In this document: positions 9,683 to 36,624 of the stretch, one piece after another
Numbering within the stretch: position 1 is the first letter of the stretch
Layout of the letters: each line of letters starts with the position of its first letter
Origin: Bacillota bacterium
GTDB lineage: Bacteria; Bacillota; Clostridia; Christensenellales; SZUA-584
Direction of reading: 5' to 3'
NCBI GenBank assembly: GCA_023391105.1
Contig: JAEWBO010000013.1
Span: 10,433 to 74,432, forward strand
Length of the DNA stretch: 64,000 bases
The notes under the pieces: model-generated
Told to the model about the DNA's origin: nothing
Seen by the model: only the letters and a program-made list of their open reading frames with translations
The model's database searches: none
Made by a program: the position numbers and the translations under genes

Positions 9683-10903
9683 TCAGCCAACTTTCTGCGC
9701 AAGTCCGGCTTGTATTAGTGACTTACTGCCAAGAAGTATAGCGCTGACGGCCACCATCAATATTCCAGTTCCAACAAGCAGCCACTCAATGGCGACAGTA
9801 TCAGACAGTGGCCCAAAGACGAGCATACCAAGCGGCATCACAGCGCTTGTAATCATGCCAAATAAACCGAATACCCGTCCAAGATACGATTCCTCGACCT
9901 TCTCCTGCAGCAGCACAGTCGCGGGTGTGTGAAACAATGGAATGACAACCCCAGTCACGCCCATCACGGCCAGATAAATCCAAAATATCGGTATGACACC
10001 CATGGCAAACGTACAGATACCAAGTGCAAACCCTGAAAAAACCATTGTGTAGATTCTGTTCTTAAAGCCGCCCCATGCGGCCATCACCAAACCGCCCAGA
10101 ACCATGCCTAAGGAAAAAGCAATCTCAATGGCGCTTAAGTGCCAGACTCCCCCGCTGAAGCTTCTTGTCACCTGCAATGGCGTTAAAAACGCGGCGGGGG
10201 CGGCAAGAAAAAAGAAAATCGCACTAAAGCTCAAGAATTTTATCACAAAACCATGTGATTTGATATAGGACAGGCCGCTGCGAAAATCGGAAAAATATCC
10301 TTCTTGTCTTTTTTGCGTCGCCTTTTCATGCGGCGGCACATGCAGAAAAAAGCTTAGTATACCAATCGCAATCGCGGCGGTTACAACATCGATGAAAAAT
10401 ATAATGTCAAGTGTAGCCACAGCCATAAGAGCTCCGCTCGCCATAGGCGACACAAGTGTGATCACGCTTTGAATGGTGCTGTTTATGGCGTTGACTCGTG
10501 TCAGCTTTTCTTCGGGAACAATTTGCGGAATAAACGCACCCACGGCCGGCTGCTGTATGCCCGTACCCAACGAGCGTACAGCCGATATCAGGAAAAGAAG
10601 CCAGAGCTCATCGTATCCAAGCATAAAGACAATGGCAAGCACAAGCGTGACAGTCGCAATGCCAGCATCCGAGAGAATAATGAGCGTTTTTCTATTGTAA
10701 CGATCTGCCCAGACTCCTGCGAATGGTGACAGAAAAAAGTTCGGTAAAAAACCACAGACAATCGAAAGCGTCATCATCAGCCCCGATTGTGTGGATAGTG
10801 TAATGTGCCAGAGAATCGCATATTGCACAAGTGAGGAACCAAGCAGAGACACCGTCTGACTCGATATAAAAATGGCGGCTTTTTTCTTCCAATCCGAACT
10901 CAT
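9683..10903 (-). CDS. MFS transporter (drug/macrolide-efflux-like)
   Basis: 406 aa with ~12 predicted TM helices. The WADRYNRK loop motif after TM2 is typical of MFS. Confidence 0.85.
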   Translation of the reverse strand: MSSDWKKKAAIFISSQTVSLLGSSLVQYAILWHITLSTQSGLMMTLSIVCGFLPNFFLSPFAGVWADRYNRKTLIILSDAGIATVTLVLAIVFMLGYDELWLLFLISAVRSLGTGIQQPAVGAFIPQIVPEEKLTRVNAINSTIQSVITLVSPMASGALMAVATLDIIFFIDVVTAAIAIGILSFFLHVPPHEKATQKRQEGYFSDFRSGLSYIKSHGFVIKFLSFSAIFFFLAAPAAFLTPLQVTRSFSGGVWHLSAIEIAFSLGMVLGGLVMAAWGGFKNRIYTMVFSGFALGICTFAMGVIPIFWIYLAVMGVTGVVIPLFHTPATVLLQEKVEESYLGRVFGLFGMITSAVMPLGMLVFGPLSDTVAIEWLLVGTGILMVAVSAILLGSKSLIQAGLAQKVG

Positions 10904-19999: not shown

Positions 20000-20890
20000 A
20001 TGCGAAATACGTCGGTTGAGCTTGTGAAGCAAGTGGTGATGCTGATTGAAGATAGCCTCAATGAACCGCTATTGCTGGACAATATTGCATGCAGCGTGTT
20101 TGTTTCTAAGTACCATCTGCACCGCTTATTCAAAACACTGACCGGCAGAACGCTGATGTCTTACGTGAGAGGCCGGCGACTCAGCCGCAGCATCAATGAT
20201 CTTCTCAATACACAAGAAAAGCTTTCGTATATCGCTGAGATGTATGGTTTTAGCTATGAGCAGAGCTATGAACGCGCTTTCAAGAGTCAGTTTGGGATGA
20301 CGCCATCCGCATTCCGAAGTGCACCGATCGAATTGGAAATCGTTCATATGCTTGATACAAGTACGATACGTGATATTGCTAGTGGAATTTTTGTGGCGCC
20401 GCGCTTTCTTGTATTGCCCGATATGATGTTTGCAGGTATCCGTCATAATATCTCATTGCAGCCAAAGCAACCCACTGCCGCTAATGAAGCCGCGCTGCGG
20501 TTTTGTGATAGTGAACGCAAAAGCATACACCATCGAATTAACGAACATTTATATTATGGATTTACTTATGATGTGCATGAACAATCATATCGGTATATGT
20601 CTTGCGTCGAGACAAATCAAATATCTCAGTTGCCCACGCCTTTTGAAAGCTTTGTGCTTCCTTCTCATCTTTATGCAGTGTTCAGGTATGTGGGGTTTCA
20701 TGGCGCTGAGTATCTGTCAGAATACACGCTTGATGAGATATATAATTATATCTCCGTGGATTGGTGCGCAAAAACAGATTATCGAAGAGACAAAGACTAC
20801 ATGTTTGAGCGTGTTGACGCCACTGTATGCAAATCAACCTATTGTGAGATGGATATTTTTCTGCCAGTAGATAACAAACTGAATCAGTAA
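20000..20890 (+). CDS. AraC-family transcriptional regulator with GyrI-like effector domain
   Basis: N-terminal HTH (VSKYHLHRLFK..., YGFSYEQSYERAFKSQFGMTPS) and a C-terminal ~150-aa GyrI-like region. Confidence 0.85.
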   Translation: MRNTSVELVKQVVMLIEDSLNEPLLLDNIACSVFVSKYHLHRLFKTLTGRTLMSYVRGRRLSRSINDLLNTQEKLSYIAEMYGFSYEQSYERAFKSQFGMTPSAFRSAPIELEIVHMLDTSTIRDIASGIFVAPRFLVLPDMMFAGIRHNISLQPKQPTAANEAALRFCDSERKSIHHRINEHLYYGFTYDVHEQSYRYMSCVETNQISQLPTPFESFVLPSHLYAVFRYVGFHGAEYLSEYTLDEIYNYISVDWCAKTDYRRDKDYMFERVDATVCKSTYCEMDIFLPVDNKLNQ

Positions 20891-21011
20891 TCCTTGGTTT
20901 TATATGTTATTATGAATGCTTGGCAGCATTTCTCTTTCGTCGTCTGTTTAAACTTTCGCATATTTTTTATACTAATGGCAAAAGATTAAAAAATATGATG
21001 GGAGAAAAAAG

Positions 21012-21962
21012 ATGACTGTTGGAATACCTAAAGGTCTTTTGTATTCAAAATATCATGTTTTCGCCGAGTCTTTTTTTCGTGCTCTTGGAATGGATATCAT
21101 AACGTCACCGGATACAAATAAAGAAATACTCGATGAAGGTGTAAAATCGTGTGTGGATGACGCTTGCCTGCCGATAAAAGTTTTTCACGGACATGTACAA
21201 TGGCTAAAGGATAAATGCGATTATTTGCTGATGCCGCGTTTATTTAGTCTTGAGAAAAGGAAGTCCCTTTGCCCTATGTTCTGCGGTCTTGTGGAGATGG
21301 TAAAAAGCAGTGTGTCAGAACTTCCTTTGCTTATCGATTCCCCCGTGTATTCTCTTGATAAGAAAAGCTTGCTGGAATGGGCCATGCAATCGGGCAGTTT
21401 CTTGACAAGAGATAAAGAAGCCATTGCAGATGCTTTTGAATGTGCGCTCAAAAAGCAGAAAAATCATATAACAGCACTTAACGATAATGATTACGCACAT
21501 CGTATTGCTCTGATCGGACATACATATAATATCCACGATGCTTTCATTAACATGCATCTGATTAAAAAACTGCACGCGATGGATATTGGTGTGGTAACAG
21601 CGGATAGCGTTGATAAAAATGATATTGCGCTTCAAACAGGCATGCTATACAAAGCTCCGTTCTGGTATTTTGCGCGAGAATACTACGGTGCAGCCATCAG
21701 CCTTTATAAAAACAGACTTGTCGATGGCTTTATTTATGTATCCGCTTTCTCGTGTGGTGTCGATTCAGTCGTTATCGAGCTGATTAAACTGGAAATGGGT
21801 TCTTATCCCTTCATGGTTTTAAAAATTGATGAGCATACCGGAGAAGCCGCAATAGACACGCGCATAGAGGCTTATGCGGACATGCTTAAAAGGAGGGCTC
21901 AAATTGGTTATCACCGTCCCGCGTATGGGCAACATATGCCTTGCCGCCAAAGCGTTTTTTGA
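21012..21962 (+). CDS. acyl-CoA dehydratase activase-related protein (DUF2229-type)
   Basis: The IGIPKGLLYSKYHVFAESFF...CLPIKVFHGH pattern is typical of the uncharacterised CoA-enzyme-activase domain. Confidence 0.75.
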   Translation: MTVGIPKGLLYSKYHVFAESFFRALGMDIITSPDTNKEILDEGVKSCVDDACLPIKVFHGHVQWLKDKCDYLLMPRLFSLEKRKSLCPMFCGLVEMVKSSVSELPLLIDSPVYSLDKKSLLEWAMQSGSFLTRDKEAIADAFECALKKQKNHITALNDNDYAHRIALIGHTYNIHDAFINMHLIKKLHAMDIGVVTADSVDKNDIALQTGMLYKAPFWYFAREYYGAAISLYKNRLVDGFIYVSAFSCGVDSVVIELIKLEMGSYPFMVLKIDEHTGEAAIDTRIEAYADMLKRRAQIGYHRPAYGQHMPCRQSVF

Positions 21963-23001
21963 AGCTGCGCGCATTCCCTATGTGATGCCCGAAATAATTA
22001 ACAAGCAGACGCTGCAAAACGGCGTTGCGCTGTCGCCGGATGAAATATGTCTGCCGTTTAAGATTTTAATGGGCAGCTATACTGACTGTATAAAAAAGGG
22101 CGCGGATACCATACTGATTACAGGAAGCTGCGGCCCGTGCCGTTTTGGAGAATACTGTGAGCTGCAGATGAAGCTGCTTGAAAAGCTCGGCACTCAGGCC
22201 AAAACGATCGTTCTTGATGCCCCAAAAGAGATCGGCAGACAGGAGCTTCTCAGACGAATCGGCTTGATTTCCAAGGCCAGCCCTTTAAGCGCAAAGCAAA
22301 AGCTCCTTGCCCTGCGGCAAGCTTTTCACATATTGTCGCTTGCGGACAGCATTGATGAAAAGGCGCACATGCTGGCCGGATACGAATTGAACAGCGGTGA
22401 ATGCAAGCAATTGATTATGGCATGCCATGAGCAGACAGAGAATTGCCGCAACCCACATGAAATACAGGTTCTTTTGGAGCATTATCTTCAAAAGCTGGGT
22501 AATGTAAAAACGGTTATGAAAAAAAAGCCGCTGCGGGTCGCTCTGATCGGAGAAATATATTCGATGGTTGAGCCTTTTGCGAATCTGTATATCGAAGAAA
22601 AGCTGATGGGCTACGGAGTGAGTTCAAGTCGGCTTATCACACCCAGCTGGTGGCTTAAGGACCTCATTGCCAAACCGCTTAAGCTTAATTCCATAGATAT
22701 CCGGCGCGCTGCCCACGACTATCTGCCTTATAACGCGGGCGGTCATGCGAAGGAATCGATTGGCCATGCCGTGATATGCCAAAGGAATAATTTTGACGGT
22801 GCAATACAGATCTTCCCGCTTGGATGTATGCCTGAAATCGTCGTCAAGGCGATTATGCCTGTTGTTCAACAAGAAAAGGATTTTCCGGTGTTGACATTGG
22901 TCGTGGATGAAATGACGGGTGAAGCCGGATATATGACAAGAATTGAAGCTTTTCTTGATATGCTGGAAGCGAAACGAAGAAAAGGAGAGATATCGGCTTG
23001 A
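21904..23001 (+). CDS. acyl-CoA dehydratase activase-related protein (HgdB/2-hydroxyacyl-CoA-dehydratase-like fold)
   Basis: Start chosen at TTG 21904, after AAAGGAGGG. The alternative is ATG 21925. GSCGPCRFGEY and DEMTGEAGYMTRIEAF blocks. It overlaps the end of the upstream gene. Confidence 0.75.
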   Translation: MVITVPRMGNICLAAKAFFEAARIPYVMPEIINKQTLQNGVALSPDEICLPFKILMGSYTDCIKKGADTILITGSCGPCRFGEYCELQMKLLEKLGTQAKTIVLDAPKEIGRQELLRRIGLISKASPLSAKQKLLALRQAFHILSLADSIDEKAHMLAGYELNSGECKQLIMACHEQTENCRNPHEIQVLLEHYLQKLGNVKTVMKKKPLRVALIGEIYSMVEPFANLYIEEKLMGYGVSSSRLITPSWWLKDLIAKPLKLNSIDIRRAAHDYLPYNAGGHAKESIGHAVICQRNNFDGAIQIFPLGCMPEIVVKAIMPVVQQEKDFPVLTLVVDEMTGEAGYMTRIEAFLDMLEAKRRKGEISA

Positions 23002-24008
23002 ATAAAGAGTTTTGCCTTGGCATCGATGTCGGTTCAGTCAGCACAAACATTGTACTGATCGATACAGACGGCAAGGTGGTTGAGAAGCTGTACTTGCGAA
23101 CGAATGGACGCCCGATTGAGGCCATATGTAAAGGCCTTTCCCTACTTAAAGGCAAACCGGATGAAAGTGCAGTTATCATTGGTGCGGGCACTACGGGCAG
23201 CGGCAGGCAGTTAGCTGGTGCGATGGTGGGCGCAGATGTCATGAAAAACGAAATCACAGCGCATGCTGTGGCCGCTTGTCATGTTGTTCCGGATGTGCGG
23301 ACAATACTGGAAATCGGCGGTCAGGATTCAAAGATCATTCTTGTCAAAGATGGTGTTGTTTGTGATTTTGCTATGAATTCCGTCTGCGCTGCAGGAACAG
23401 GCTCATTTTTGGACAGGCAGGCCTCTCGCCTTGAAATTCCCATAGAAGAGTTTGGCGGTTATGCGCTGCGCTCCAAGTCCCCCGTGCGTATTGCGGGGCG
23501 TTGTGCCGTGTTTGCCGAGTCAGATATGATCAGCAAGCAACAAGCGGGTCACAGCGCTGAGGATATTATTGCGGGACTATGTGAGGCTCTCGTTCGCAAT
23601 TACTTAAACAATCTCGCAAAAGGCAAAGAGATCAGAGGTCCTATATTGTTTCAAGGAGGTGTGGCCGCCAATGTCGGAATCCTTTCGGCATTTGAAAAAG
23701 CACTTGGCAAAAAAGTCATTATTCCGCAGCAATACGATGTGATGGGTGCTTATGGCGCTGCTTTAATTGCCAAAGATGCAGTGCCTGATAAACAAACCTG
23801 TTTTAAGGGCTTTGAGAACTTGAACCGTGAATTCATCACTGAGAGCATCGCCTGCACTGACTGCGCCAATATGTGTGAGGTCGCCAGAGTTATGGCGGAT
23901 GGCGATTGTATTGCCCACTGGGGTGACCGGTGCGGCAAATGGGGCAATAGGATGAACTCATCCATGCAAAATAAAGAGGAAAAGAACAAAGAGTCGGAAG
24001 TATCGTAA
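22998..24008 (+). CDS. BadF/BadG/BcrA/BcrD-type ATPase (CoA-substrate-specific enzyme activase)
   Basis: LGIDVGSVSTN and GGQDSK ATPase motifs. The cluster-bridging Cys motifs are NSVCAAGTGSFLD and GRCAVFAESD. TTG start after GGAGAG. Confidence 0.85.
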   Translation: MNKEFCLGIDVGSVSTNIVLIDTDGKVVEKLYLRTNGRPIEAICKGLSLLKGKPDESAVIIGAGTTGSGRQLAGAMVGADVMKNEITAHAVAACHVVPDVRTILEIGGQDSKIILVKDGVVCDFAMNSVCAAGTGSFLDRQASRLEIPIEEFGGYALRSKSPVRIAGRCAVFAESDMISKQQAGHSAEDIIAGLCEALVRNYLNNLAKGKEIRGPILFQGGVAANVGILSAFEKALGKKVIIPQQYDVMGAYGAALIAKDAVPDKQTCFKGFENLNREFITESIACTDCANMCEVARVMADGDCIAHWGDRCGKWGNRMNSSMQNKEEKNKESEVS

Positions 24009-24108
24009 GCCAATTCTTTTCTTTTGTTAAAGAACAAATATTCAAAGAAACTCATAGTATACATCAGCAAACAATACATGTTTGTTCTCGATGAAAGGAG
24101 TTTTTTTC

Positions 24109-24543
24109 ATGCCAGATGGAATAAATACATCAAGTGATATGGAAATCGCGCAGCGCGGCGGACGTGGCGGTTTCCCGGGCGGTGGTCCGCGTGGCGGCTT
24201 CCCAGGCAGAGGATTCCCGCGCGGTGGTTTTCCCCGCAGGCGGTTTCCCCGGAGATTTCCGGTAAGACGCTTTCCCAGATTCTTTTTCTTCCCAATTGGC
24301 TTCCCGACCGGACGGTGCTTTTTTATAGATCAATTTGGCCGGTGCTGTGACCAATTTGGCCGGTGCTGTGACCGATTTGGCAGGTGTGTCTTCGATAACA
24401 GATTCGCAGATAACCGTGTCGCGTTTGGTCCGCAGTCAGACGGCTGGTTCGGCATACCGGGAAGTTGGGATATGATGCCGGATTATGATGACATGGCGGA
24501 TTATGACATGGACGATATGGACGATATGGACGACTTTAGCTAA
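24109..24543 (+). CDS. extreme low-complexity protein (144 aa): RGG/RFP-repeat basic N-half, DQFGRCC repeats, acidic D/M tail
   Basis: AAAGGAG SD 9 nt before the ATG at 24109, and a strong hairpin terminator 48 nt after the stop. No family recognised. Confidence 0.6.
   Translation: MPDGINTSSDMEIAQRGGRGGFPGGGPRGGFPGRGFPRGGFPRRRFPRRFPVRRFPRFFFFPIGFPTGRCFFIDQFGRCCDQFGRCCDRFGRCVFDNRFADNRVAFGPQSDGWFGIPGSWDMMPDYDDMADYDMDDMDDMDDFS
24328..24390 (+). repeat. three tandem 21-bp units inside the low-complexity gene (encode DQFGRCC / DQFGRCC / DRFGRCV)
   Basis: gatcaatttggccggtgctgt | gaccaatttggccggtgctgt | gaccgatttggcaggtgtgtc, read directly. Confidence 0.9.
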
Positions 24544-26287: not shown

Positions 26288-26369
26288 AAATCATCTTTAC
26301 TTGGCATTCGCATATTTAGAGCCAGAATTGAAAAACTAAACCATGATATTATCATACAAGGAGACAGGC

Positions 26370-27314
26370 ATGAGCGAACAGGACAAGCAGTCAAAAGCGT
26401 TATCGGCCCGCTGCGCTTATCAACTCGCAGACGTGGAGAAAACAGCCCCTCAATATATATCCATCAGTCCCAGATGGCTGACAAGATTCCTGGAATGGAA
26501 ACCACTTGAGTCGGGCATATTCCGCCTTAATAAGGTGAGAAATGGTCAAGATCTGCTGGAGACACTGTGCACCCAGTCTAACGGAGAAGACATTCCGGAA
26601 GGCTATATTGATTATGAGCCAGAGCCCCGCGAATACATTCTTAGCTCCGTATCTTCTATTATAAAAATCGAAACACGCGTATCAGATATATACAGTAAGC
26701 CATATGATCAGATCAAGGAACAACTGCGACTTGGCATGGAGAGCATCAAAGAGAAACAGGAAAGCCTCATCATCAACAGCGATGATTATGGGCTGCTCAA
26801 AAACGTAGGCGATGCGCAAAGAATCAAAACGCGCAATGGTTCGCCCACGCCGGATGATCTCGACGATATGATCGCCAAGGTATGGAAGCAGCCGTCTTTC
26901 TTTCTTGCGCACCCCGCTGCCATCGCCGCGTTTGGCCGCGAATGCACACGCCGTGGCGTGCCGCCGGTGGCCGTTAACCTTCATGGCTCCCAGTTCATTA
27001 CATGGCGCGGTATTCCGCTTGTGCCTACGGACAAGCTTTTAATAGACGGACATAGAAAACCGCGCGACTCAAAGGGGAAAACGAATATTTTTCTGATACG
27101 CAGCGGCGAAGCCAATCAGGGTGTTATTGGCTTGTACCAGACAGGGCTGCCCGGAGAACAGTCTCGCGGCCTTTCCGTGCGGTTTATGGGCATCAACAAT
27201 CAGGGAATCGGTTATTACTTGCTGTCTATCTATTGCTCAACGGCCATTTTAACAGATGACGCGATTGCCGTTCTTGAGGACGTCGAAATCGGAAATTATT
27301 ATGATTATCAATAA
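26370..27314 (+). CDS. family 2A encapsulin nanocompartment shell protein (SrpI-like), no cNMP-binding insertion
   Basis: 314 aa from the ATG at 26370 (SD AAGGAG). I recognise these blocks from family 2A shells: ISPRWLTRFLEWKPLESGIFRLNKV, TRVSDIYSKPYDQIKEQLRLGMESIKEKQE, TPDDLDDMIAKVWKQPSFFLAHPAAIAAFGRECTRRGVPP, FITWRGIPLVPTDK, LTDDAIAVLEDVE. A desulfurase follows immediately. Confidence 0.85.
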   Translation: MSEQDKQSKALSARCAYQLADVEKTAPQYISISPRWLTRFLEWKPLESGIFRLNKVRNGQDLLETLCTQSNGEDIPEGYIDYEPEPREYILSSVSSIIKIETRVSDIYSKPYDQIKEQLRLGMESIKEKQESLIINSDDYGLLKNVGDAQRIKTRNGSPTPDDLDDMIAKVWKQPSFFLAHPAAIAAFGRECTRRGVPPVAVNLHGSQFITWRGIPLVPTDKLLIDGHRKPRDSKGKTNIFLIRSGEANQGVIGLYQTGLPGEQSRGLSVRFMGINNQGIGYYLLSIYCSTAILTDDAIAVLEDVEIGNYYDYQ

Positions 27315-28776
27315 TAATCTGTACGACATTGAAAGCGGTACGTTAAACCAGGATAAGCTCATAAAAGAATCGGTCGCTTCGCTGGCAAAAATGTATTTCC
27401 CCGAATTTAATCCGTTGTATTCTCAAACATCCGAACCGTCAATCGAAGCGGCGGATTTATTTGCCGAACGAATTCGCGTTGATTCCCTGCTTAAATTGGA
27501 CAAAGATGATACAGCATTGGATAGTGACGAAGGCTTAGACGGTACGCGAAAAGACTTTCCTATTCTTTCTGAAAAAGTGAACGGACATCCGCTTGTGTGG
27601 TTCGATAACGCCGCGACCACGCAAAAGCCGCAATGCGTGATCGATCGAATCAAGGCGTTTTACGAGCATGAAAACTCGAATGTGCACCGCGGCGCACATT
27701 CGCTTGCCAGAAGAACGACAGATGCTTATGAAGACGCACGCGCGAAAGCTGGCGCTTTTCTCAACGCGTCCACGACTCAAGAGATCGTTTTTGTTCGCGG
27801 CACCACGGAAGCCATCAACCTTGCGGCGCATTCGTATGGTCTCCCCCATCTTCATGATGGCGATGAGGTGCTAATCACACAGCTTGAACACCATGCAAAC
27901 ATCGTACCTTGGCAGATCGTCTGCGCCAAAACAGGCGCAAAGCTAAAGGCGTCGCCGGTTAACGAGTACGGGCAGGTTGATATGGCAGCGTTTGAAAAGT
28001 TGCTCAGCAATAAGACAAAGCTGGTGGCCATCACGCATGTGTCCAATGCCATCGGTACGGTGACACCAGTCGCACAAATGATTCAAATTGCACACCAGTA
28101 TGGCGCCAGAGTGTTTGTAGACGGCGCACAGGCGGTGGCGCATCAAGCTATAGATGTGCAGGTGCTCGATTGTGACTTTTACGCCTTCTCAGGTCATAAG
28201 GTGTTCGGGCCAACCGGTATTGGGGTTCTGTATGCAAAATCAGAGTTGCTTGAAGACATGCCGCCCTATCAGGGCGGCGGCAGTATGATCGAGGATGTCT
28301 CATTGGAGAGCACAAAATACAAAGCCCCTCCCCATCGTTTTGAAGCGGGAACGGGCAATATTGCGGGTGCAATCGGGCTTGGCGCGGCACTTGATTACGT
28401 CAGACACGTGGGGCTTAATCGTATTGAGCAATACGAAAAACGCTTGCTCTTACACGCTTGTGATTCTTTGAAAGGTGTCCCAGGTCTCAAAATAATAGGC
28501 AAGCCGCAAGCGGGAATTGTCTCGTTTTTGCTGAATGGCGTTTCCCCGGAAGAAGTCGGAAAGCATCTCGACCAGCAAGGCATCGCCGTCAGGGCCGGTC
28601 ATCATTGCGCTCAGCCGATCTTGCGGTATCTTGGCTATGAAAGCACCTTGCGCGTATCACTTGCACTTTACAACACACGATCTGAAATTGACCGTCTTGT
28701 AAACGCACTTAAGAATATCGGCAGAGCCACATCATATTGGTCTTTCCCGCCTATTCCTCAAGTAATGCCTGATTGA
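27301..28776 (+). CDS. SufS-type cysteine desulfurase with ~80-aa N-terminal extension (putative encapsulin cargo)
   Basis: The ATG at 27301 overlaps the shell gene end by 14 nt. The core begins at RKDFPIL...WFDNAATTQKP. PLP lysine in FSGHK and catalytic Cys in RAGHHCAQP. Confidence 0.9.
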   Translation: MIINNNLYDIESGTLNQDKLIKESVASLAKMYFPEFNPLYSQTSEPSIEAADLFAERIRVDSLLKLDKDDTALDSDEGLDGTRKDFPILSEKVNGHPLVWFDNAATTQKPQCVIDRIKAFYEHENSNVHRGAHSLARRTTDAYEDARAKAGAFLNASTTQEIVFVRGTTEAINLAAHSYGLPHLHDGDEVLITQLEHHANIVPWQIVCAKTGAKLKASPVNEYGQVDMAAFEKLLSNKTKLVAITHVSNAIGTVTPVAQMIQIAHQYGARVFVDGAQAVAHQAIDVQVLDCDFYAFSGHKVFGPTGIGVLYAKSELLEDMPPYQGGGSMIEDVSLESTKYKAPPHRFEAGTGNIAGAIGLGAALDYVRHVGLNRIEQYEKRLLLHACDSLKGVPGLKIIGKPQAGIVSFLLNGVSPEEVGKHLDQQGIAVRAGHHCAQPILRYLGYESTLRVSLALYNTRSEIDRLVNALKNIGRATSYWSFPPIPQVMPD

Positions 28777-29809
28777 TAAGCTCCGCAACCAGATACTTGG
28801 CTTTAGACCATATCAGCGACTCAAAATCCGCATCATCATGCGGCGCGCTGCCGTTGCCTGTGGGCGTGAGTTCTATGCAAAAGCCGGGGCGCGAGAAGTC
28901 CTGCCGGAACCAGTTTTCGAACCCGGCGGCATATACTGCCGGATCTTCGGATACAGGCATGAGCTCATAGCCTGTCACATCTGCCATTGTCTGCGCGATA
29001 GATGAGCCCGCCGCAATGCTGTCCTGCGTGCCGCTGTCCGCCCAGTAAATCACATCGCCCTTGGTGTGGAAAGAAGCGGTGAGCAAAAAGTCGTTATTCT
29101 TGCAGAGCGTCATTATGGCCTGAACCTCGGGTTCGGTGCCGGGCGCTGTGCCCTTATACATCTCTGAGCTTGGCATATCGGTATTGCTTTGCTTTTCGTC
29201 CCAGTGGCAGGGGTACTGGCGGTTTAAGTCCACGCCGTTTATGTTGGCCTTCCATTCCTCATAGCCAATCTGCAGCATACGCATAGATTTGACCCTCTCT
29301 GGATCCTTCACAGCCTCAACGCCGTTTTGTACGAGATTCACGCCATCAGGATTGACCATCGGCACAATATAAACCGTCACCTCATTAAGCAGCGCTTTTA
29401 TATCATACTCGCCGAAATCTTCTTTTGCGGCATAATGGCGTGCATATTCATCTGTCATCTCCATCAGAAACGTGGCGGTAATATATTCGCGTGCGTGGTG
29501 CGTTCCCGCAAGCATAATTTTCTGTTCACCCTTGCCAATCTTAATAAGCAAAAGCTCACGCCCTTCAACGGATTGTCCGATTGTGTCGGTGGCAATTAAA
29601 TCGGGATATGTGTCTGCCAGCATTTGAGCGTCGCTGAGCATTTGCTCATAACTGTAGGTTTGAGACGGGTTGACAACGTCTGCAAACTCATTGATTTCGT
29701 GTTGCGGAATATCTCCAATATCAACGATCTCAATATCTGGATTCGGTGCAGTGCATGCCGATATGCTTATAACCGCAATGATGATTAATATCAAGAGTGT
29801 TTTTTTCAT
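28751..29809 (-). CDS. lipoprotein M14-family zinc carboxypeptidase (gamma-D-glutamyl-meso-DAP peptidase-like)
   Basis: Lipobox ISISAC. Zinc motif GTHHAREYIT and IVPMVNPDG. Its 3' end overlaps the desulfurase 3' end by 26 bp. Confidence 0.85.
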   Translation of the reverse strand: MKKTLLILIIIAVISISACTAPNPDIEIVDIGDIPQHEINEFADVVNPSQTYSYEQMLSDAQMLADTYPDLIATDTIGQSVEGRELLLIKIGKGEQKIMLAGTHHAREYITATFLMEMTDEYARHYAAKEDFGEYDIKALLNEVTVYIVPMVNPDGVNLVQNGVEAVKDPERVKSMRMLQIGYEEWKANINGVDLNRQYPCHWDEKQSNTDMPSSEMYKGTAPGTEPEVQAIMTLCKNNDFLLTASFHTKGDVIYWADSGTQDSIAAGSSIAQTMADVTGYELMPVSEDPAVYAAGFENWFRQDFSRPGFCIELTPTGNGSAPHDDADFESLIWSKAKYLVAELINQALLEE

Positions 29810-30962: not shown

Positions 30963-31475
30963 ATGAGCACGAAACCTGTCGAAGCCACGTGTGGCTGCTG
31001 CAAGGAATGCAACGATGACAAATTCGCAGCCATTGCCAATGTGATTGATTTGTACAAGGATAAGGAAGGAAGCCTGATTCAGATACTCCATCTTGCGCAG
31101 CAGATTTATGGCTATCTGCCGCTTGATGTTCAGGTGTTCATTGCAGATTCGCTTCATATTCCTCTCTCAGAGATATCCGGTGTGATCACCTTCTACTCGT
31201 TTTTCTCCACAGAGCCAAGAGGACAGCACACCATCCGTGTCTGCCTTGGAACGGCTTGTTACGTAAGAGGCGGTAAAAAAATCGTTGAAAGCCTCAAGGA
31301 AAAGCTGGACGTGGACGTCGGCGGCACCACCATGGACGGCAAATTCACTTTCGAAGTTGCAAGATGCATCGGCGCATGCGGGCTTGCCCCGGCGATGATG
31401 ATAGACGACGTTGTCTACAAGCAGGTCAATGTCAACAAATTGAATGCGATATTGGCTAAATATGATAACGAATAA
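30963..31475 (+). CDS. hydC: [FeFe]-hydrogenase complex subunit, NuoE/HydC-like [2Fe-2S] protein
   Basis: VCLGTACYVRGG...CIGACGLAP thioredoxin-like 2Fe-2S motif. Cys-rich N-terminus CGCCKEC. Confidence 0.85.
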   Translation: MSTKPVEATCGCCKECNDDKFAAIANVIDLYKDKEGSLIQILHLAQQIYGYLPLDVQVFIADSLHIPLSEISGVITFYSFFSTEPRGQHTIRVCLGTACYVRGGKKIVESLKEKLDVDVGGTTMDGKFTFEVARCIGACGLAPAMMIDDVVYKQVNVNKLNAILAKYDNE

Positions 31476-31488
31476 GGAGGTGAACGAA

Positions 31489-34400
31489 ATGAAATCAGGC
31501 AAAATTGAATCAATTGACCAACTCAATGGGATTAAAGAGAAATATAATTCAGATCTGGAAACGTACAAATACAGGATATTCGTCTGTGCAGGCGCAGGCT
31601 GCGTATCATCAAACTGTGCTCTTGTTCGGGATGCTGTCATTAGCGAGATCATAAGCATCGGCATGCAGAATGAGGTTAAGGTGTTTGAAACTGGCTGTAT
31701 GGGAACCTGCGCGGTTGGCCCAGTGATGCTTGTGATGCCGGATAAGGTTTTCTACACCGATCTCAATGAAGAAAAAGCCAGGCAGATCGTCCGTACGCAT
31801 ATTAAAAACGGCCATACGATCGTCCCATATACGTTCTATGACTATTCGCTTGGTAAGCATGTTCCGTGCATCGACGATATTGCATTCTTTAAAAAGCAGG
31901 TTAAAATCGCGCTGCGGAACTGCGGCTCGATGGAATATGCGGATATCGAAGCATATATAGCCCGGGACGGCTATTATGCCGCTTATAAAGCGCTAAAGGA
32001 TATGACGCCGCAAACAATTGTGCAGGAGGTCAAGACATCAGGCATCAAGGGACGCGGCGGTGCGGGCTTCCCCACGGGCATCAAATGGGAAGCGGCTCAG
32101 AAACAGAAAAGTGACAAAAAATATATCGTCTGCAACGCCGACGAAGGCGACCCCGGTGCTTTCATGGACAGAAGCATTATCGAGGGTGATCCCCATACCG
32201 TCATCGAGGGTATGATGATTGGCGGATATGCCATAGGAGCCACGACGGGTTATATCTACGTGCGTGCTGAGTACCCCATCGCAGTAGACAGAATGACGGC
32301 GGCGCTTTATGAGGCAAGAAGCAGAGGTCTGCTCGGGAAAGACATATTCGGAAGCGGTTTTTCGTTTGATATCGAGCTCAGAATCGGTGCGGGCGCTTTT
32401 GTATGCGGCGAAGAAACATCGCTAATGGCATCAATTGAGGGTCATCGCGGAGAACCCAAGCAAAAACCGCCTTTCCCGTTCCAGAAAGGCCTCTTTGGGA
32501 AGCCAACAATCATCAATAATGTGGAGACATATGCCAGCATTGCGATGATCATACTCAACGGCGGCGAGTGGTACACGCAATTCGGGACAGAAAATAGCAA
32601 GGGCACAAAGGTTTTTGCACTTGCAGGTGACGTCATGAACACGGGCATCGTTGAGGTGCCCATCGGTATTCCGCTCGGAGACATAATATTTGAAATCGGC
32701 GGCGGAACCGCCAACAAGAAGAAGTTCAAATCCGCACAAATCGGCGGGCCTTCAGGCGGCTGCATTACGACAGATAACCTCAATGTACCGACGGACTATG
32801 AACCATTAAAAGAGCTTGGCGCGATCATGGGATCGGGAGGGCTTATCGTCATGAACGAGGATGCCTGTATGGTCGATACCGCGCGATTTTTTATGGATTT
32901 CATAAAGGATGAGTCCTGCGGCAAATGCACGGCCTGTCGTATCGGCACCAAGCGCATGCTTGAGATACTCGAGCGCATCACGCGGGGCGAAGGCGAAGAA
33001 GGTGATGTGGAGCTATTAATCGAGCTTGGTGAGACAATCCAGGAGACGGCTATGTGCGGCCTCGGACAGACGGCACCGAATCCTGTGCTCTCAACTATTA
33101 AGTATTTTCGCGAAGAATATGACGAGCATATTAGAAACAAGTATTGCCGCGCGGGTGTGTGCAGCGATCTGTTCATTTCGCCGTGTGAGAACACCTGTCC
33201 CGCTAATGTCAATGTTCCGGGATATATGTCGCTTATCGCCGCAGGGCGGTTCAACGATGCCTACAAATTGATCCGGCAGGAAAACCCCTTCCCTGCCGTT
33301 TGCGGTCGTATCTGCACACGGCCCTGTGAGAGCAAATGCCGCAGGCGCACGGTGGACGAAGCGCTGGCCATTTGCGATCTCAAGAGGTTTGTTGCTGACT
33401 ACGCGATGAATAACAGTAAGAATACGTATCAGACCGATGTTGTGTTCCCGAAAAACGGGAAAAACATCGCAGTCATCGGTGCGGGCGCGTCGGGGCTGAC
33501 ATGCGCATATTATCTCGCGCGTATCGGTTATGACGTGGACGTGTTCGAATCGCATAACACAGCGGGCGGTGTGCTGGCATATGGCATTCCGGAATACCGC
33601 CTCCCCAAGGATGTGCTTGATGATGAAGTCAAGCTTATCGAGCAAACGGGTGTCAAAATTCATCTGAATACTGAGGTGGGCCGTGACATTATGTTTAAAG
33701 AGCTCAAGGCCACATATGACGCGATTTACATCGCAACGGGTACACAACTGCCGCAAAAGATCAATGTGCCTGGAGAAAGCCTGCCAGGCGTTGTGCATGG
33801 CATCAAGTTCTTAAAAAAAGCCAACACGCACGCTCCGATCGAAATGGGTAAAAACGTGGTCGTTATCGGCGGCGGCAACACAGCGATAGACTCCGCAAGG
33901 ACAGCGCTTCGGCTGGGAGCGGATAAGGTCACGATACTCTACAGACGCACCTGCGATTCAATGCCGGCATACGAACAAGAAATACGCGAAGCCGTTGAAG
34001 AAGGCATTGAGCTCATACCGCTTGCTGCACCCGTGCGGTTCATTCCGGGCCCAGATGGTCGGGTGTCAAAAATCGAATGTGTCAGGATGTGCCTTGGAGA
34101 TTTTGATGCCTCTTGCCGCAGGCGCAGCGTTTATGTGGAGGATTCAAACTTCTTCATTGATGCCGACATGGTTATCCCTGCGGTCAGCCAGTTTGCGGAC
34201 TTTCCGTTCATCGGGAAAGACGAAATTGGACTCACACCCTGGGGCACGTTCATACTGCGAAGCGACACGCAGATGACCACGATGGATGGCGTATTTGCAG
34301 GCGGTGACGTCACCCGTGGGCCGGATGAGGTGATACGCGCGATTGCAGACGGCAAAAATGCCGCGATTTCGATCGACAAATATCTTGGCGGTAAAGGACA

Positions 34401-34593
34401 TCTCAATAAGGGTGAGCCAATAGATATTCCCGAAATCACAGATGAAGACGATATTGTGGCTCATGGCCGGTTTGATCTTGAAATACTTGATCCGAAGACG
34501 CGCAAATATTCGTTCGATGAAGTGATTAAGGGTTACCATAAGCTCAACGCGATGGCAGAAGCTATGCGCTGTCTGCATTGTGAAAGGAGGTAG
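31489..34593 (+). CDS. hydB: NuoF/HydB-like flavoprotein fused to a GltD/NfnB-like NADPH-dependent FAD oxidoreductase module
   Basis: ATG at 31489 after AAGGAGG. N-terminal 2Fe-2S domain, GRGGAGFPTG (FMN) and ESCGKCTACRIG (4Fe-4S). From ~33140: CENTCPANV...CGRICTRPCESKC, VIGAGASGLTCAYYL (FAD) and VVIGGGNTAIDSAR (NADPH). Confidence 0.85.
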   Translation: MKSGKIESIDQLNGIKEKYNSDLETYKYRIFVCAGAGCVSSNCALVRDAVISEIISIGMQNEVKVFETGCMGTCAVGPVMLVMPDKVFYTDLNEEKARQIVRTHIKNGHTIVPYTFYDYSLGKHVPCIDDIAFFKKQVKIALRNCGSMEYADIEAYIARDGYYAAYKALKDMTPQTIVQEVKTSGIKGRGGAGFPTGIKWEAAQKQKSDKKYIVCNADEGDPGAFMDRSIIEGDPHTVIEGMMIGGYAIGATTGYIYVRAEYPIAVDRMTAALYEARSRGLLGKDIFGSGFSFDIELRIGAGAFVCGEETSLMASIEGHRGEPKQKPPFPFQKGLFGKPTIINNVETYASIAMIILNGGEWYTQFGTENSKGTKVFALAGDVMNTGIVEVPIGIPLGDIIFEIGGGTANKKKFKSAQIGGPSGGCITTDNLNVPTDYEPLKELGAIMGSGGLIVMNEDACMVDTARFFMDFIKDESCGKCTACRIGTKRMLEILERITRGEGEEGDVELLIELGETIQETAMCGLGQTAPNPVLSTIKYFREEYDEHIRNKYCRAGVCSDLFISPCENTCPANVNVPGYMSLIAAGRFNDAYKLIRQENPFPAVCGRICTRPCESKCRRRTVDEALAICDLKRFVADYAMNNSKNTYQTDVVFPKNGKNIAVIGAGASGLTCAYYLARIGYDVDVFESHNTAGGVLAYGIPEYRLPKDVLDDEVKLIEQTGVKIHLNTEVGRDIMFKELKATYDAIYIATGTQLPQKINVPGESLPGVVHGIKFLKKANTHAPIEMGKNVVVIGGGNTAIDSARTALRLGADKVTILYRRTCDSMPAYEQEIREAVEEGIELIPLAAPVRFIPGPDGRVSKIECVRMCLGDFDASCRRRSVYVEDSNFFIDADMVIPAVSQFADFPFIGKDEIGLTPWGTFILRSDTQMTTMDGVFAGGDVTRGPDEVIRAIADGKNAAISIDKYLGGKGHLNKGEPIDIPEITDEDDIVAHGRFDLEILDPKTRKYSFDEVIKGYHKLNAMAEAMRCLHCERR

Positions 34594-34599
34594 TCATTG

Positions 34600-36624
34600 A
34601 TGATTAATTTGCAGATTAACGGCCGCTTAGTGACTGTTCCCAAGGATTATACCATCATGGATGCAGCCAAAACTGTGGGAATCAAAATACCTGGACTTTG
34701 CCAGATGGACGGTGTTCACCAGTTTGGTTCCTGCCGCATTTGTGTTGTGGAGGTCGAAGGTGCGAAAACCTTGCAGGCGTCTTGCCTGGCGAAGGTCGCC
34801 GAAGGTATGGTTGTGGAGACAAATACGGCAAAGGTGAGAAACGCGCGGCGTGTGCTCTATGAGCTGCTGCTTTCAGATCATGATAAGGACTGCTTAAGCT
34901 GTACGAGAAACCAGAGCTGTGAGCTTCAAGAGCTCGGCAAAATTCTCGGTGTAAGTGAATCGCGTTTCGACGGCGAACATTCGGAATTTAATCTTGACTC
35001 CTCCGTATCCATTACGCGAAATATGTCCAAATGCGTGCTGTGCAGGCGATGTGTCACTGTCTGCAACGAAATTCAGGGAACCGGCATACTCAATGCGCAA
35101 AACCGCGGTTTCCAGACTGTGATAGGCCCCGCGATGGATTTAAAGCTTGGCACCGTCAACTGCGTATTCTGCGGACAGTGTACGGTGGTGTGCCCGGTGG
35201 GTGCGCTTAAAGAAACAGATGCCATCCAACCTGTCTGGAAGGCGCTCAGCGATGAGAAAAAAAGATGTGTGGTACAGGTGGCTCCTGCGATTCGGGTAGC
35301 GATCGGAGAGGAGTTCGGGTATGAACCCGGTGCACGTGTGACGGGTAAGCTGGCGCAGGCTCTTTCTACGCTGGGGTTTGACGATATATTTGATACAAAT
35401 TTCGCCGCTGATCTCACGATTATGGAGGAAGGCACAGAATTTTTGACACGTGTGAAAAGAGCGCTGACCGGCGGTGAAGCCGCATTGCCGATGATTACAT
35501 CGTGCAGCCCCGGTTGGATTAAATACATAGAGCATTCCTACACTGATCTTCTCCCCCATCTCTCCACATGCAAATCGCCGCATACCATGCTGGGTGCGCT
35601 GGTCAAATCGTTCTATGCTGAAAAAATCGGCTATGATCCGAAGGACATGTACGTGGTGTCGGTGATGCCGTGTACCGCCAAGAAGTTTGAGATCAGCCGT
35701 CATGAGATGTGCAATAATGATGTTCCCAATGTGGATGCGGTGCTCACAACAAGAGAGCTTGGGCAAATGGTACGTGAAGCGGGTATTGACTTTGCTTTGC
35801 TGGAGGATCGTGAGTTTGATAATCCGCTTGGAATGTCGACGGGCGCTGCCGATATTTTCGGTGTGACAGGAGGCGTCATGGAAGCCGCATTGCGCACTGT
35901 ATACGAGCTTGTGACGGGGCGCGAACTACCGTTTGACAAGCTGCATGTCGCACCTATTGTGGGGTTAGAGCAAATAAAAACTGCTGAGATAAAGATTGAG
36001 GATACACTGCCGAATTATAAGTTCCTTGAAGGCATTGTCGTCAAGGTAGCCGTGACGAGCGGCCTTTCAGGCGCGAAGATACTCATGGATCAGATTAAAA
36101 ACGGTGAATCGCCCTATCACTTCATCGAAGTGATGGGCTGTCCCAGCGGATGTATCATGGGAGGCGGTCAACCGAGATCAAAAGATGTTGATGTGAGGAA
36201 AAAACGTCTCCAGGGTATTTACGACGAGGATGAAGCAAAGGTCATTCGGAAATCGCATGATAACCCATCCGTTATAAAGCTTTATGAAGAGTACCTTGAA
36301 CTTCCCAACAGCCATGTGTCACACAAGCTGCTGCATACGCATTATGTCAAACGCGGACGGTTTAATGAGTTCCTGGAGGACGAATATGTGAATGAAGAGG
36401 TGATTCCTATGACGCAAAAGAACAAAGCTTCGTCAAATCAGTCGCAAAAAAAAACCGCTCAGGAACGCGCATCCAGACGGGTTCATGAGGACTTAGAGTC
36501 GGTTAGGGTGATGTCTTTAGAGGCTGAGGTCACTCGGCTCAAACAGGAATTATCCGATTCTCAGGAGACTGTCGAGATACTAAAAGATGTGATGAGCGAT
36601 TACGCTAAGAAACCCAAACGATAA
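34600..36624 (+). CDS. hydA: [FeFe]-hydrogenase catalytic subunit (M3-type accessory clusters) with variant L1 motif and C-terminal extension
   Basis: 2Fe-2S N-domain, HDKDCLSCTRNQSC, two CxxCxxCxxxC ferredoxin motifs. H-cluster motifs are L1 TSCSPGW, L2 MPCTAKKFE, L3 EVMGCPSGCIMGGGQP. ATG at 34600 follows GAAAGGAGG. Confidence 0.9.
   Translation: MINLQINGRLVTVPKDYTIMDAAKTVGIKIPGLCQMDGVHQFGSCRICVVEVEGAKTLQASCLAKVAEGMVVETNTAKVRNARRVLYELLLSDHDKDCLSCTRNQSCELQELGKILGVSESRFDGEHSEFNLDSSVSITRNMSKCVLCRRCVTVCNEIQGTGILNAQNRGFQTVIGPAMDLKLGTVNCVFCGQCTVVCPVGALKETDAIQPVWKALSDEKKRCVVQVAPAIRVAIGEEFGYEPGARVTGKLAQALSTLGFDDIFDTNFAADLTIMEEGTEFLTRVKRALTGGEAALPMITSCSPGWIKYIEHSYTDLLPHLSTCKSPHTMLGALVKSFYAEKIGYDPKDMYVVSVMPCTAKKFEISRHEMCNNDVPNVDAVLTTRELGQMVREAGIDFALLEDREFDNPLGMSTGAADIFGVTGGVMEAALRTVYELVTGRELPFDKLHVAPIVGLEQIKTAEIKIEDTLPNYKFLEGIVVKVAVTSGLSGAKILMDQIKNGESPYHFIEVMGCPSGCIMGGGQPRSKDVDVRKKRLQGIYDEDEAKVIRKSHDNPSVIKLYEEYLELPNSHVSHKLLHTHYVKRGRFNEFLEDEYVNEEVIPMTQKNKASSNQSQKKTAQERASRRVHEDLESVRVMSLEAEVTRLKQELSDSQETVEILKDVMSDYAKKPKR

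Follow-up and report, generated by a model that had tools for sequence, protein, structure and literature searches.

A probable two-gene family 2A encapsulin and cysteine desulfurase module with a short cargo-loading region in an anaerobic clostridial lineage

We analyzed a 64,000-nt stretch of DNA (positions 10,433 to 74,432 of contig JAEWBO010000013.1, assembly GCA_023391105.1; here called the window) from a Bacillota bacterium of the Clostridia and found that it carries two overlapping genes that very probably form a family 2A desulfurase encapsulin, in which the shell protein would assemble, a short tag would load the desulfurase, and sulfur would be kept inside. The locus belongs to a sizeable short-tag subclade of a known system, which is found in anaerobes and is already annotated in part. 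The two genes, given in window numbering like all gene positions in this text unless a locus is named, are as follows.

26370..27314, + strand: family 2A encapsulin shell gene; 314 amino acids (aa), 35.3 kDa
27301..28776, + strand: cargo gene, class II (SufS-type) cysteine desulfurase whose N-terminal loading region is short; 491 aa, 53.7 kDa

An earlier reading of this DNA (the first-pass annotation) had named these two open reading frames (ORFs) and quoted a series of sequence blocks from them, all of which we found in place; those in the shell protein are ISPRWL, TRVSDIYSKPYDQIKEQLRL, TPDDLD...FGRECTRRGVPP, FITWRGIPLVPTDK and LTDDAIAVLEDVE. It had assigned the first product to the SrpI-type family 2A shells, which is borne out by the gene context and by matches in searches of profiles and PDB sequences. 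The search with family 2 profile hidden Markov models that it had proposed as a check gave significant matches to the Pfam SrpI-like family PF19307, which was the sole Pfam match (E = 1.8e-95; 319 bits, cut-off 22.8), and to the NCBIfam equivalog model NF041162 encap_f2a (E = 3.5e-146; 485.9 bits, cut-off 380), the full profile of which (positions 1-295 of 295) aligned with shell residues 11-313. Three solved shells matched end to end, with E values from 1e-102 to 1e-124: those of Acinetobacter baumannii (8T6R; E = 3e-124, 61% identity over residues 4-313, including the N-arm and the C terminus) and Synechococcus elongatus (SrpI, 6X8M; E = 1.6e-116, 57% identity) and the mycobacterial Mmp1 (8WOL). 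The first-pass annotation had also placed the protein in family 2A rather than 2B for want of a cyclic nucleotide monophosphate (cNMP) insertion. In agreement with this placement, Pfam and NCBIfam profile searches of the shell found no domain for cNMP binding, and the score with the 2B model NF041163 stayed below its cut-off (375.5 against 400), the match falling in two stretches of which the best covered profile positions 208-449. Solved 2B chains measure 470-477 aa, compared with the 314 aa of the window shell.

Structural work on SrpI has placed R192, G194 and P196 along the 5-fold pore and F262 and Y273 near the cargo density, and has found R304 to be poorly conserved (PMC8049743). With SrpI numbering mapped onto the PDB alignment, the three pore residues and the two cargo-proximal residues are all conserved in the window shell, where they fall within the stretches CTRRGVPP (residues 192-199), VRFMG (270-274) and GIGYYLL (279-285), and the position of R304 is occupied by Q. 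At approximately 60% identity to solved structures, the shell protein would be expected to have the HK97 fold.

This fold is common to encapsulins and phage capsids, and the local GC content of 0.49 slightly exceeds the window mean of 0.44, two observations that would also suit a major capsid protein left by a prophage or phage remnant. We regard such an origin of the first ORF as extremely improbable, as the protein passes an equivalog-level encapsulin model and its gene is always paired with a desulfurase gene. Neither within ±6 kb of the pair nor in the further sampled stretches of the window was a phage portal, protease or terminase gene found. The genes that flank the pair encode an Amidase_6 protein, a YlbF-like protein, an M14 carboxypeptidase and an OmpR-type response regulator, and with such neighbors the prophage capsid reading was rejected. 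The GC content of the module (0.49 to 0.50) and its GC content at third codon positions (0.51 to 0.54) match those of the housekeeping genes hydA and eno of the window, which also speaks against a phage origin; the composition shows no sign of recent horizontal transfer.

The second gene had been described in the first-pass annotation as encoding a complete SufS-type desulfurase that overlaps the shell gene by 14 nt, and this description proved accurate. The product matched Aminotran_5 (PF00266; E = 6.9e-147) and the sufS model TIGR01979 (575.5 bits, cut-off 475.1), and it contains the signatures FSGHK (residues 296-300) and RAGHHCAQP (residues 431-439). The catalytic part of the gene is the following.

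27550..28773, + strand: catalytic desulfurase domain; pyridoxal 5'-phosphate lysine K300 (28198-28200), persulfide cysteine C436 (28606-28608)

The closest PDB match of the cargo was 8KG1 (E = 2.5e-158), the N-terminally truncated encapsulated desulfurase of Mycobacterium smegmatis, which ranked ahead of the housekeeping SufS proteins of Escherichia coli (approximately 1e-139) and Bacillus subtilis. The active-site residues H197, K300, C436 and R451 are the same in all 36 sequences of an alignment (A3) and correspond by offset to H276, K379, C517 and R532 of the M. smegmatis desulfurase Enc-CD. An AlphaFold2 model of the cargo reached a mean predicted local distance difference test (pLDDT) score of 78.8, with the catalytic domain mostly above 85 and in a confident desulfurase fold.

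Ahead of the SufS domain, whose first residues are RKDFPIL, the cargo carries a short extension with two features.

27301..27549, + strand: N-terminal cargo-loading region, residues 1-83, 5' of the SufS domain; acidic, isoelectric point 4.2
27340..27408, + strand: predicted helix and conserved loading motif, residues 14-36, ...ESVASLAKMYFPEF, from the AlphaFold2 model and the alignment

Residues 1-83 are covered by neither Pfam nor NCBIfam, and they have no counterpart in housekeeping SufS; the alignments with SufS chains in the PDB begin at query residue ~79-82. AlphaFold2 predicted a helix at residues 14-32 (pLDDT block means of ~54-74) that leads into YFPEF, followed at residues 38-76 by pLDDT values below 50. 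Some 45 aa are predicted to be disordered, forming a linker of acidic composition (12 D/E versus 5 K/R) that is poor in proline and glycine.

To place the N-terminal region among its relatives, we used a genome scan and database searches. The genome scan comprised 22 loci, 21 from metagenome-assembled genomes (MAGs) assigned to Bacillota, Clostridia, Oscillospiraceae or Papillibacter or from an unlabelled metagenome chromosome, and one from the acidobacterial genus Granulicella (L021). Database homologues of the shell number in the thousands, and our homologue counts cover the best 120, which are 65-99% identical. The sequence SLAKMYFPEF at cargo residues 27-36 is a variant of loading motif 1 (LARLANEFFS-like). 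We take it to be the counterpart of the published LARLANEFFS because intermediates such as LEAMANEYFPEF and LASMAGEFFTE stand at the same position; among the 120 homologues it grades from LARMANEFFTA through LASMAGEFFTE and LEAMANEYFPEF to the SLAKMYFPEF of the window. A motif of the form phi-x-x-S-phi-x-x-x-Y-F-P-E-[FL] occurs at approximately residues 20-45 in all 20 Bacillota loci compared, in N-terminal regions of 82-155 aa, and within the N-terminal region F33 alone is invariant in alignment A3. The Granulicella cargo has LTRMANEFFT at the corresponding place within an N-terminal region of 321 aa, and also contains three copies of F-x-F-L-[QE]-D-A-R-P. The window cargo lacks a P-x-x-F-D-V segment that most of its relatives have right before the catalytic domain. 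Because the motif is kept in all 21 relatives and in dozens of database homologues, the 83-aa region appears to be under selection rather than in decay.

Several points weigh against the interpretation that this desulfurase is encapsulated and that the pair forms a sulfur-retaining particle. The cargo scored 719.6 bits with the cargo model NF041166 f2_encap_cargo1, below the cut-off of 800, because its loading region is short and only profile positions 228-622 of 623 align, leaving the N-terminal ~225 positions unmatched. The loading region has 83 aa where the characterized systems have 155-225 aa or more, and direct reading of these 83 residues revealed no motif resembling motif 2 (AASPYYFLDG). 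Isolated mycobacterial motifs were insufficient for loading (PMC11659603), so loading by a single-motif tag may be weak or of another kind. The AlphaFold2 model of the shell was unusable (mean pLDDT 41, predicted template modeling score 0.36), probably owing to the shallow alignment of 35 sequences at 79% mean identity. Finally, the functional data on desulfurase encapsulins all come from aerobes or phototrophs. The first-pass annotation had taken a desulfurase with an extra N-terminal domain to be the signature cargo of family 2A; this view holds insofar as a variant of the loading motif is kept, but must be qualified for a region of this length and a cargo that falls short of the NF041166 cut-off.

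These shortcomings would be accounted for if the shell were genuine but the adjacent desulfurase were encapsulated poorly or not at all, its tag being a remnant, the enzyme a free SufS-like protein, and the shell either empty or filled with other cargo. The unmatched N-terminal profile positions and the failure of single motifs to load in M. smegmatis are in line with such an arrangement, and NCBI names at least one short protein of this kind (P0162) "SufS family cysteine desulfurase." We nevertheless consider it improbable. An extension without equivalent in housekeeping SufS, a motif conserved across 21 relatives, a catalytic domain closest to that of the encapsulated 8KG1 and a conserved gene overlap all speak against a free enzyme. 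In addition, loading by a short tag is plausible: in M. smegmatis the leading 50 aa of the tag are enough for packaging (PMC11659603), and in S. elongatus the leading 100 aa load cargo (PMC8049743). When all ORFs of the window were scanned for a second cargo bearing the motif, no other ORF had it near the N terminus, and the one other match was internal to a GalT-like ORF.

The window shell differs from the solved shells by a basic loop.

27048..27071, + strand: 8-residue Lys/Arg-rich insertion GHRKPRDS, shell residues 227-234, absent from 6X8M and 8T6R

Among the 120 closest shell homologues, 115 have this insertion, with the consensus DGxKKPKxxxG in the clade. The idea that the insertion co-evolved with the YFPEF-type cargo motif was rejected on the basis of two loci (L027 and L028) that encode 307-aa shells without the insertion, yet have short cargos with RRYFPELF or RRYFPELY. 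In both of these Papillibacter-like loci, a gene for the small acid-soluble spore protein Tlp lies directly 3' of the pair (L027:5910-6143 and L028:5932-6156), and upstream are genes for a DUF4004 protein and a bactofilin, which recur in L012-L016.

Returning to the desulfurase encapsulin that we favor, its assembly, loading through a short tag, sulfur storage and physiological role can be sketched from the characterized homologues. Sixty copies of the 35-kDa shell protein would assemble into a T=1 icosahedral shell of ~24 nm. The predicted amphipathic helix ending in YFPEF, together with the ~45-residue acidic disordered linker, would tether desulfurase dimers to conserved hydrophobic patches facing the lumen. 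L-Cysteine would pass through the 5-fold pores and yield alanine, and the sulfur would stay in the lumen in the form of persulfide, polysulfide or elemental sulfur, as in the Acinetobacter system, for which elemental-sulfur storage in loaded shells has been demonstrated (PMC10836720).

We compared the pair with each of the characterized systems. Like the window locus, that of Acinetobacter baumannii 118362 (8T6R; PMC10836720) encodes a shell without a cNMP domain and with the 5-fold pore residues kept, and it has a SufS-type cargo gene immediately 3' of the shell gene. The Acinetobacter operon comprises four genes (rhodanese, serine acetyltransferase, shell and desulfurase), whereas there are two in the window. 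Its loading domain of ~225 aa has a high content of proline, glycine and serine and holds five partly conserved motifs, in contrast to the acidic 83 aa and single motif of the window cargo; its shell lacks the 8-residue basic insertion; and its host is a strict aerobe, whereas the window lineage is anaerobic. The S. elongatus SrpI/CyD system (6X8M; PMC8049743) shares R192, G194, P196, F262 and Y273 with the window shell, and its loading motif LARLANEFFS is homologous to that of the window cargo. Its cargo has an N-terminal domain of 225 aa that contains AASPYYFLDG, a motif missing from the window, and the two shells differ at R304 of SrpI. Sulfur starvation induces SrpI, which is encoded on a plasmid, whereas the window locus is chromosomal. 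The M. smegmatis Mmp1/Enc-CD system (8WOL, 8KG1; PMC11659603) has the catalytic domain closest to that of the window cargo, with the four active-site residues shared, but an N-terminal region of 155 aa with three or more motifs as opposed to one motif in 83 aa. The nearest counterparts are the uncharacterized Bacillota/Clostridia pairs of the genome scan (L001-L020 and L022), with shells 68-92% identical to that of the window, the insertion, two genes only and a YFPEF-type motif; with N-terminal regions of 82-155 aa among these relatives, the window cargo stands at the short end.

The starts and the junction of the two genes are marked by the following features.

26358..26363, + strand: ribosome-binding site AAGGAG, 6 nt 5' of the ATG at 26370, read in the sequence
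27301..27314, + strand: 14-nt overlap of shell stop and cargo start, ATGATTATCAATAA, with the cargo ATG inside the shell gene
26301-26328, + strand: candidate sigma-70-like promoter TTGGCA-16-CAGAAT, from a consensus scan only
26328-26355, + strand: candidate sigma-70-like promoter TTGAAA-16-TATCAT, from a consensus scan only

The longest reading of the shell ORF begins at 26343 and ends with the stop codon at 27314. We prefer the start at 26370 because of the AAGGAG box and because gene calls made elsewhere agree: independent calls on other contigs with an identical protein also give the 314-aa product. Of 21 related loci, 16 have an overlap of these same 14 nt, the Granulicella locus included. 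The overlap suggests that translation of shell and cargo is coupled. The two candidate promoters overlap each other and are both weak; they lie in the 82-nt gap 3' of the amidase gene, and the upstream one is the more plausible because the downstream one would start transcription inside the ribosome-binding site. An Rfam scan of the whole window found no riboswitch or other RNA family at threshold. On the other side of the pair, the M14 carboxypeptidase gene (28751-29809, - strand) is convergent with the cargo gene and overlaps its 3' end by 26 nt (28751-28776), and no terminator-like site was found between the two.

More than 100 close shell homologues were found, mostly in MAGs from Bacillota/Clostridia. 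NCBI and UniRef already name several Firmicute homologues as 2A encapsulins: their source databases label those of Anaerosinus massiliensis, Marasmitruncus massiliensis and Pelotomaculum as family 2A encapsulins and that of Sporobacter termitidis as a type 2A encapsulin shell. The OH_ series of MAGs is reported to come from anaerobic digesters (PMC13135261). All-against-all clustering of the neighboring ORFs in the 22 loci and the window singled out the shell and desulfurase genes as the sole conserved ones. A Pfam batch scan covered 69 immediate neighbors, 65 from Firmicute loci (the four neighbors of L022 were left out) and the remainder from the Granulicella locus as a control. Among the 65 Firmicute neighbors, no rhodanese, hexapeptide or other sulfur gene recurs, and no third gene, whether rhodanese, serine acetyltransferase or other, is conserved beside the pair; a rhodanese gene was seen only in Granulicella. 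Likewise, the genes that flank the window pair include neither a rhodanese nor a serine acetyltransferase gene.

A published census of 1,462 operons in 11 phyla describes four operon types, and the bare encapsulin and cysteine desulfurase pair is among them (PMC10836720); the word "Firmicutes" does not occur in the main text of this Sci Adv paper. The first-pass annotation had called the Firmicute context under-explored, which is correct in that no experimental study exists, but too strong in that NCBI and UniRef have catalogued these proteins and the two-gene operon has been published (PMC10836720).

Two of the sampled loci, L001 and L022, are syntenic with the window flanks. In L022, the closest relative in the genome collection (92% identity, fully syntenic), the shell frame is broken into pieces of 106 aa and 252 aa (L022:5953-6944), reflecting either a frameshift from a MAG assembly error or a pseudogene. 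Contigs with an identical shell differ from one another 3' of the cargo gene (~5380-6945 in L023, L025 and L026). The window and L024 have an intact M14 peptidase, which is split in L023 and cut to 195 aa in both L025 and L026; in these last two contigs the shortened gene is followed by genes for a PEMT/ICMT methyltransferase and a histidine kinase. Two further loci (L029:1249-6078 and L030:1244-6256) represent a different 2A clade, with a 318-aa shell, a ThiF-rhodanese fusion encoded directly upstream, and cargo N-terminal regions of 131-190 aa that carry the motif ...AGEFFTEF; in L030, a gene for a protein with a faint Hexapep match lies directly downstream.

Other parts of the window contain genes of separate interest. 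The first-pass annotation had described the organism as hydrogenase-bearing, and an operon (30963-36624, + strand) that begins 2 kb 3' of the pair indeed encodes a NuoE-like protein, a 1049-aa NuoF-like/GltD-like fusion (Fer4_20 and Pyr_redox_2) and a group A6 NADH-dependent [FeFe] hydrogenase, the last of which scored 863 bits with NF040763 (cut-off 765). Upstream of the pair, a 153-aa low-complexity ORF (24082-24543, + strand) contains RGGFP/RRFP repeats, three DQFGRCC-type cysteine repeats and an acidic tail rich in aspartate and methionine; it has no Pfam match, and it appears as a 144-aa gene call on the same-species contigs L023-L026. Still further upstream (20000-24008, + strand), a gene for an AraC/GyrI-like regulator is followed by genes for two DUF2229/HGD-D proteins and a BcrAD_BadFG-type activase ATPase, an arrangement that resembles a 2-hydroxyacyl-CoA dehydratase cluster.

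The gene context bears on what the particle might do. In a strict anaerobe, the same particle might serve another role than sulfur storage, namely, cysteine buffering or detoxification, or sulfur donation to meet the demand for iron-sulfur (Fe-S) clusters, for example, of the neighboring [FeFe] hydrogenase. Neither the window nor the Firmicute loci have a rhodanese or serine acetyltransferase gene with the pair, the Granulicella locus having a rhodanese; the related MAGs stem from anaerobic digesters, a setting in which reduced sulfur is probably not in short supply; Benisch et al. propose cysteine detoxification in parallel and differing uses among bacteria (PMC10836720); and the group A6 hydrogenase operon lies close by. 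However, proximity to a hydrogenase is not conserved across loci, two characterized systems are induced by sulfur starvation (PMC8049743, PMC10836720), and bacteria other than anaerobes have the two-gene operon type too (PMC10836720). On balance we see a different role as possible but less likely than not, and retain sulfur storage in a loaded shell as our preferred interpretation of the pair.

To our knowledge, desulfurase encapsulins are the only known protein-bounded stores of elemental sulfur, and all experimental work that we know of was carried out in Synechococcus, Acinetobacter and Mycobacterium, which are aerobes or phototrophs. The present analysis indicates that a bare two-gene desulfurase encapsulin, with a much shorter cargo tag that has one motif, is common in Clostridia of anaerobic digesters. 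Curated annotation rules can miss cargos with such short tags and name them plain SufS. The 83-aa region, or the ~25-aa motif within it, is a candidate for a compact peptide that targets cargo to family 2A shells.

As a more speculative and rather doubtful extension, the anaerobe clade might represent a natural minimal-tag form of the system, in which a ~25-residue helix ending in YFPEF and an acidic linker replace a multi-motif domain of 155-225 aa, the Lys-rich loop might aid the handling of cargo or sulfur, and the role in sulfide-rich anoxic habitats might differ from storage against starvation. Encapsulated cysteine desulfuration amid plentiful sulfide poses a physiological question, and does so without overturning the current picture; in a strict anaerobe, the particle could act as a starvation reserve, as a cysteine buffer or as a protected sulfur supply for enzymes rich in Fe-S clusters. 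If the clade does have this minimal form, its tag would be the smallest natural family 2A targeting peptide and would be useful for engineering, and encapsulated sulfur chemistry would be extended to strict anaerobes.

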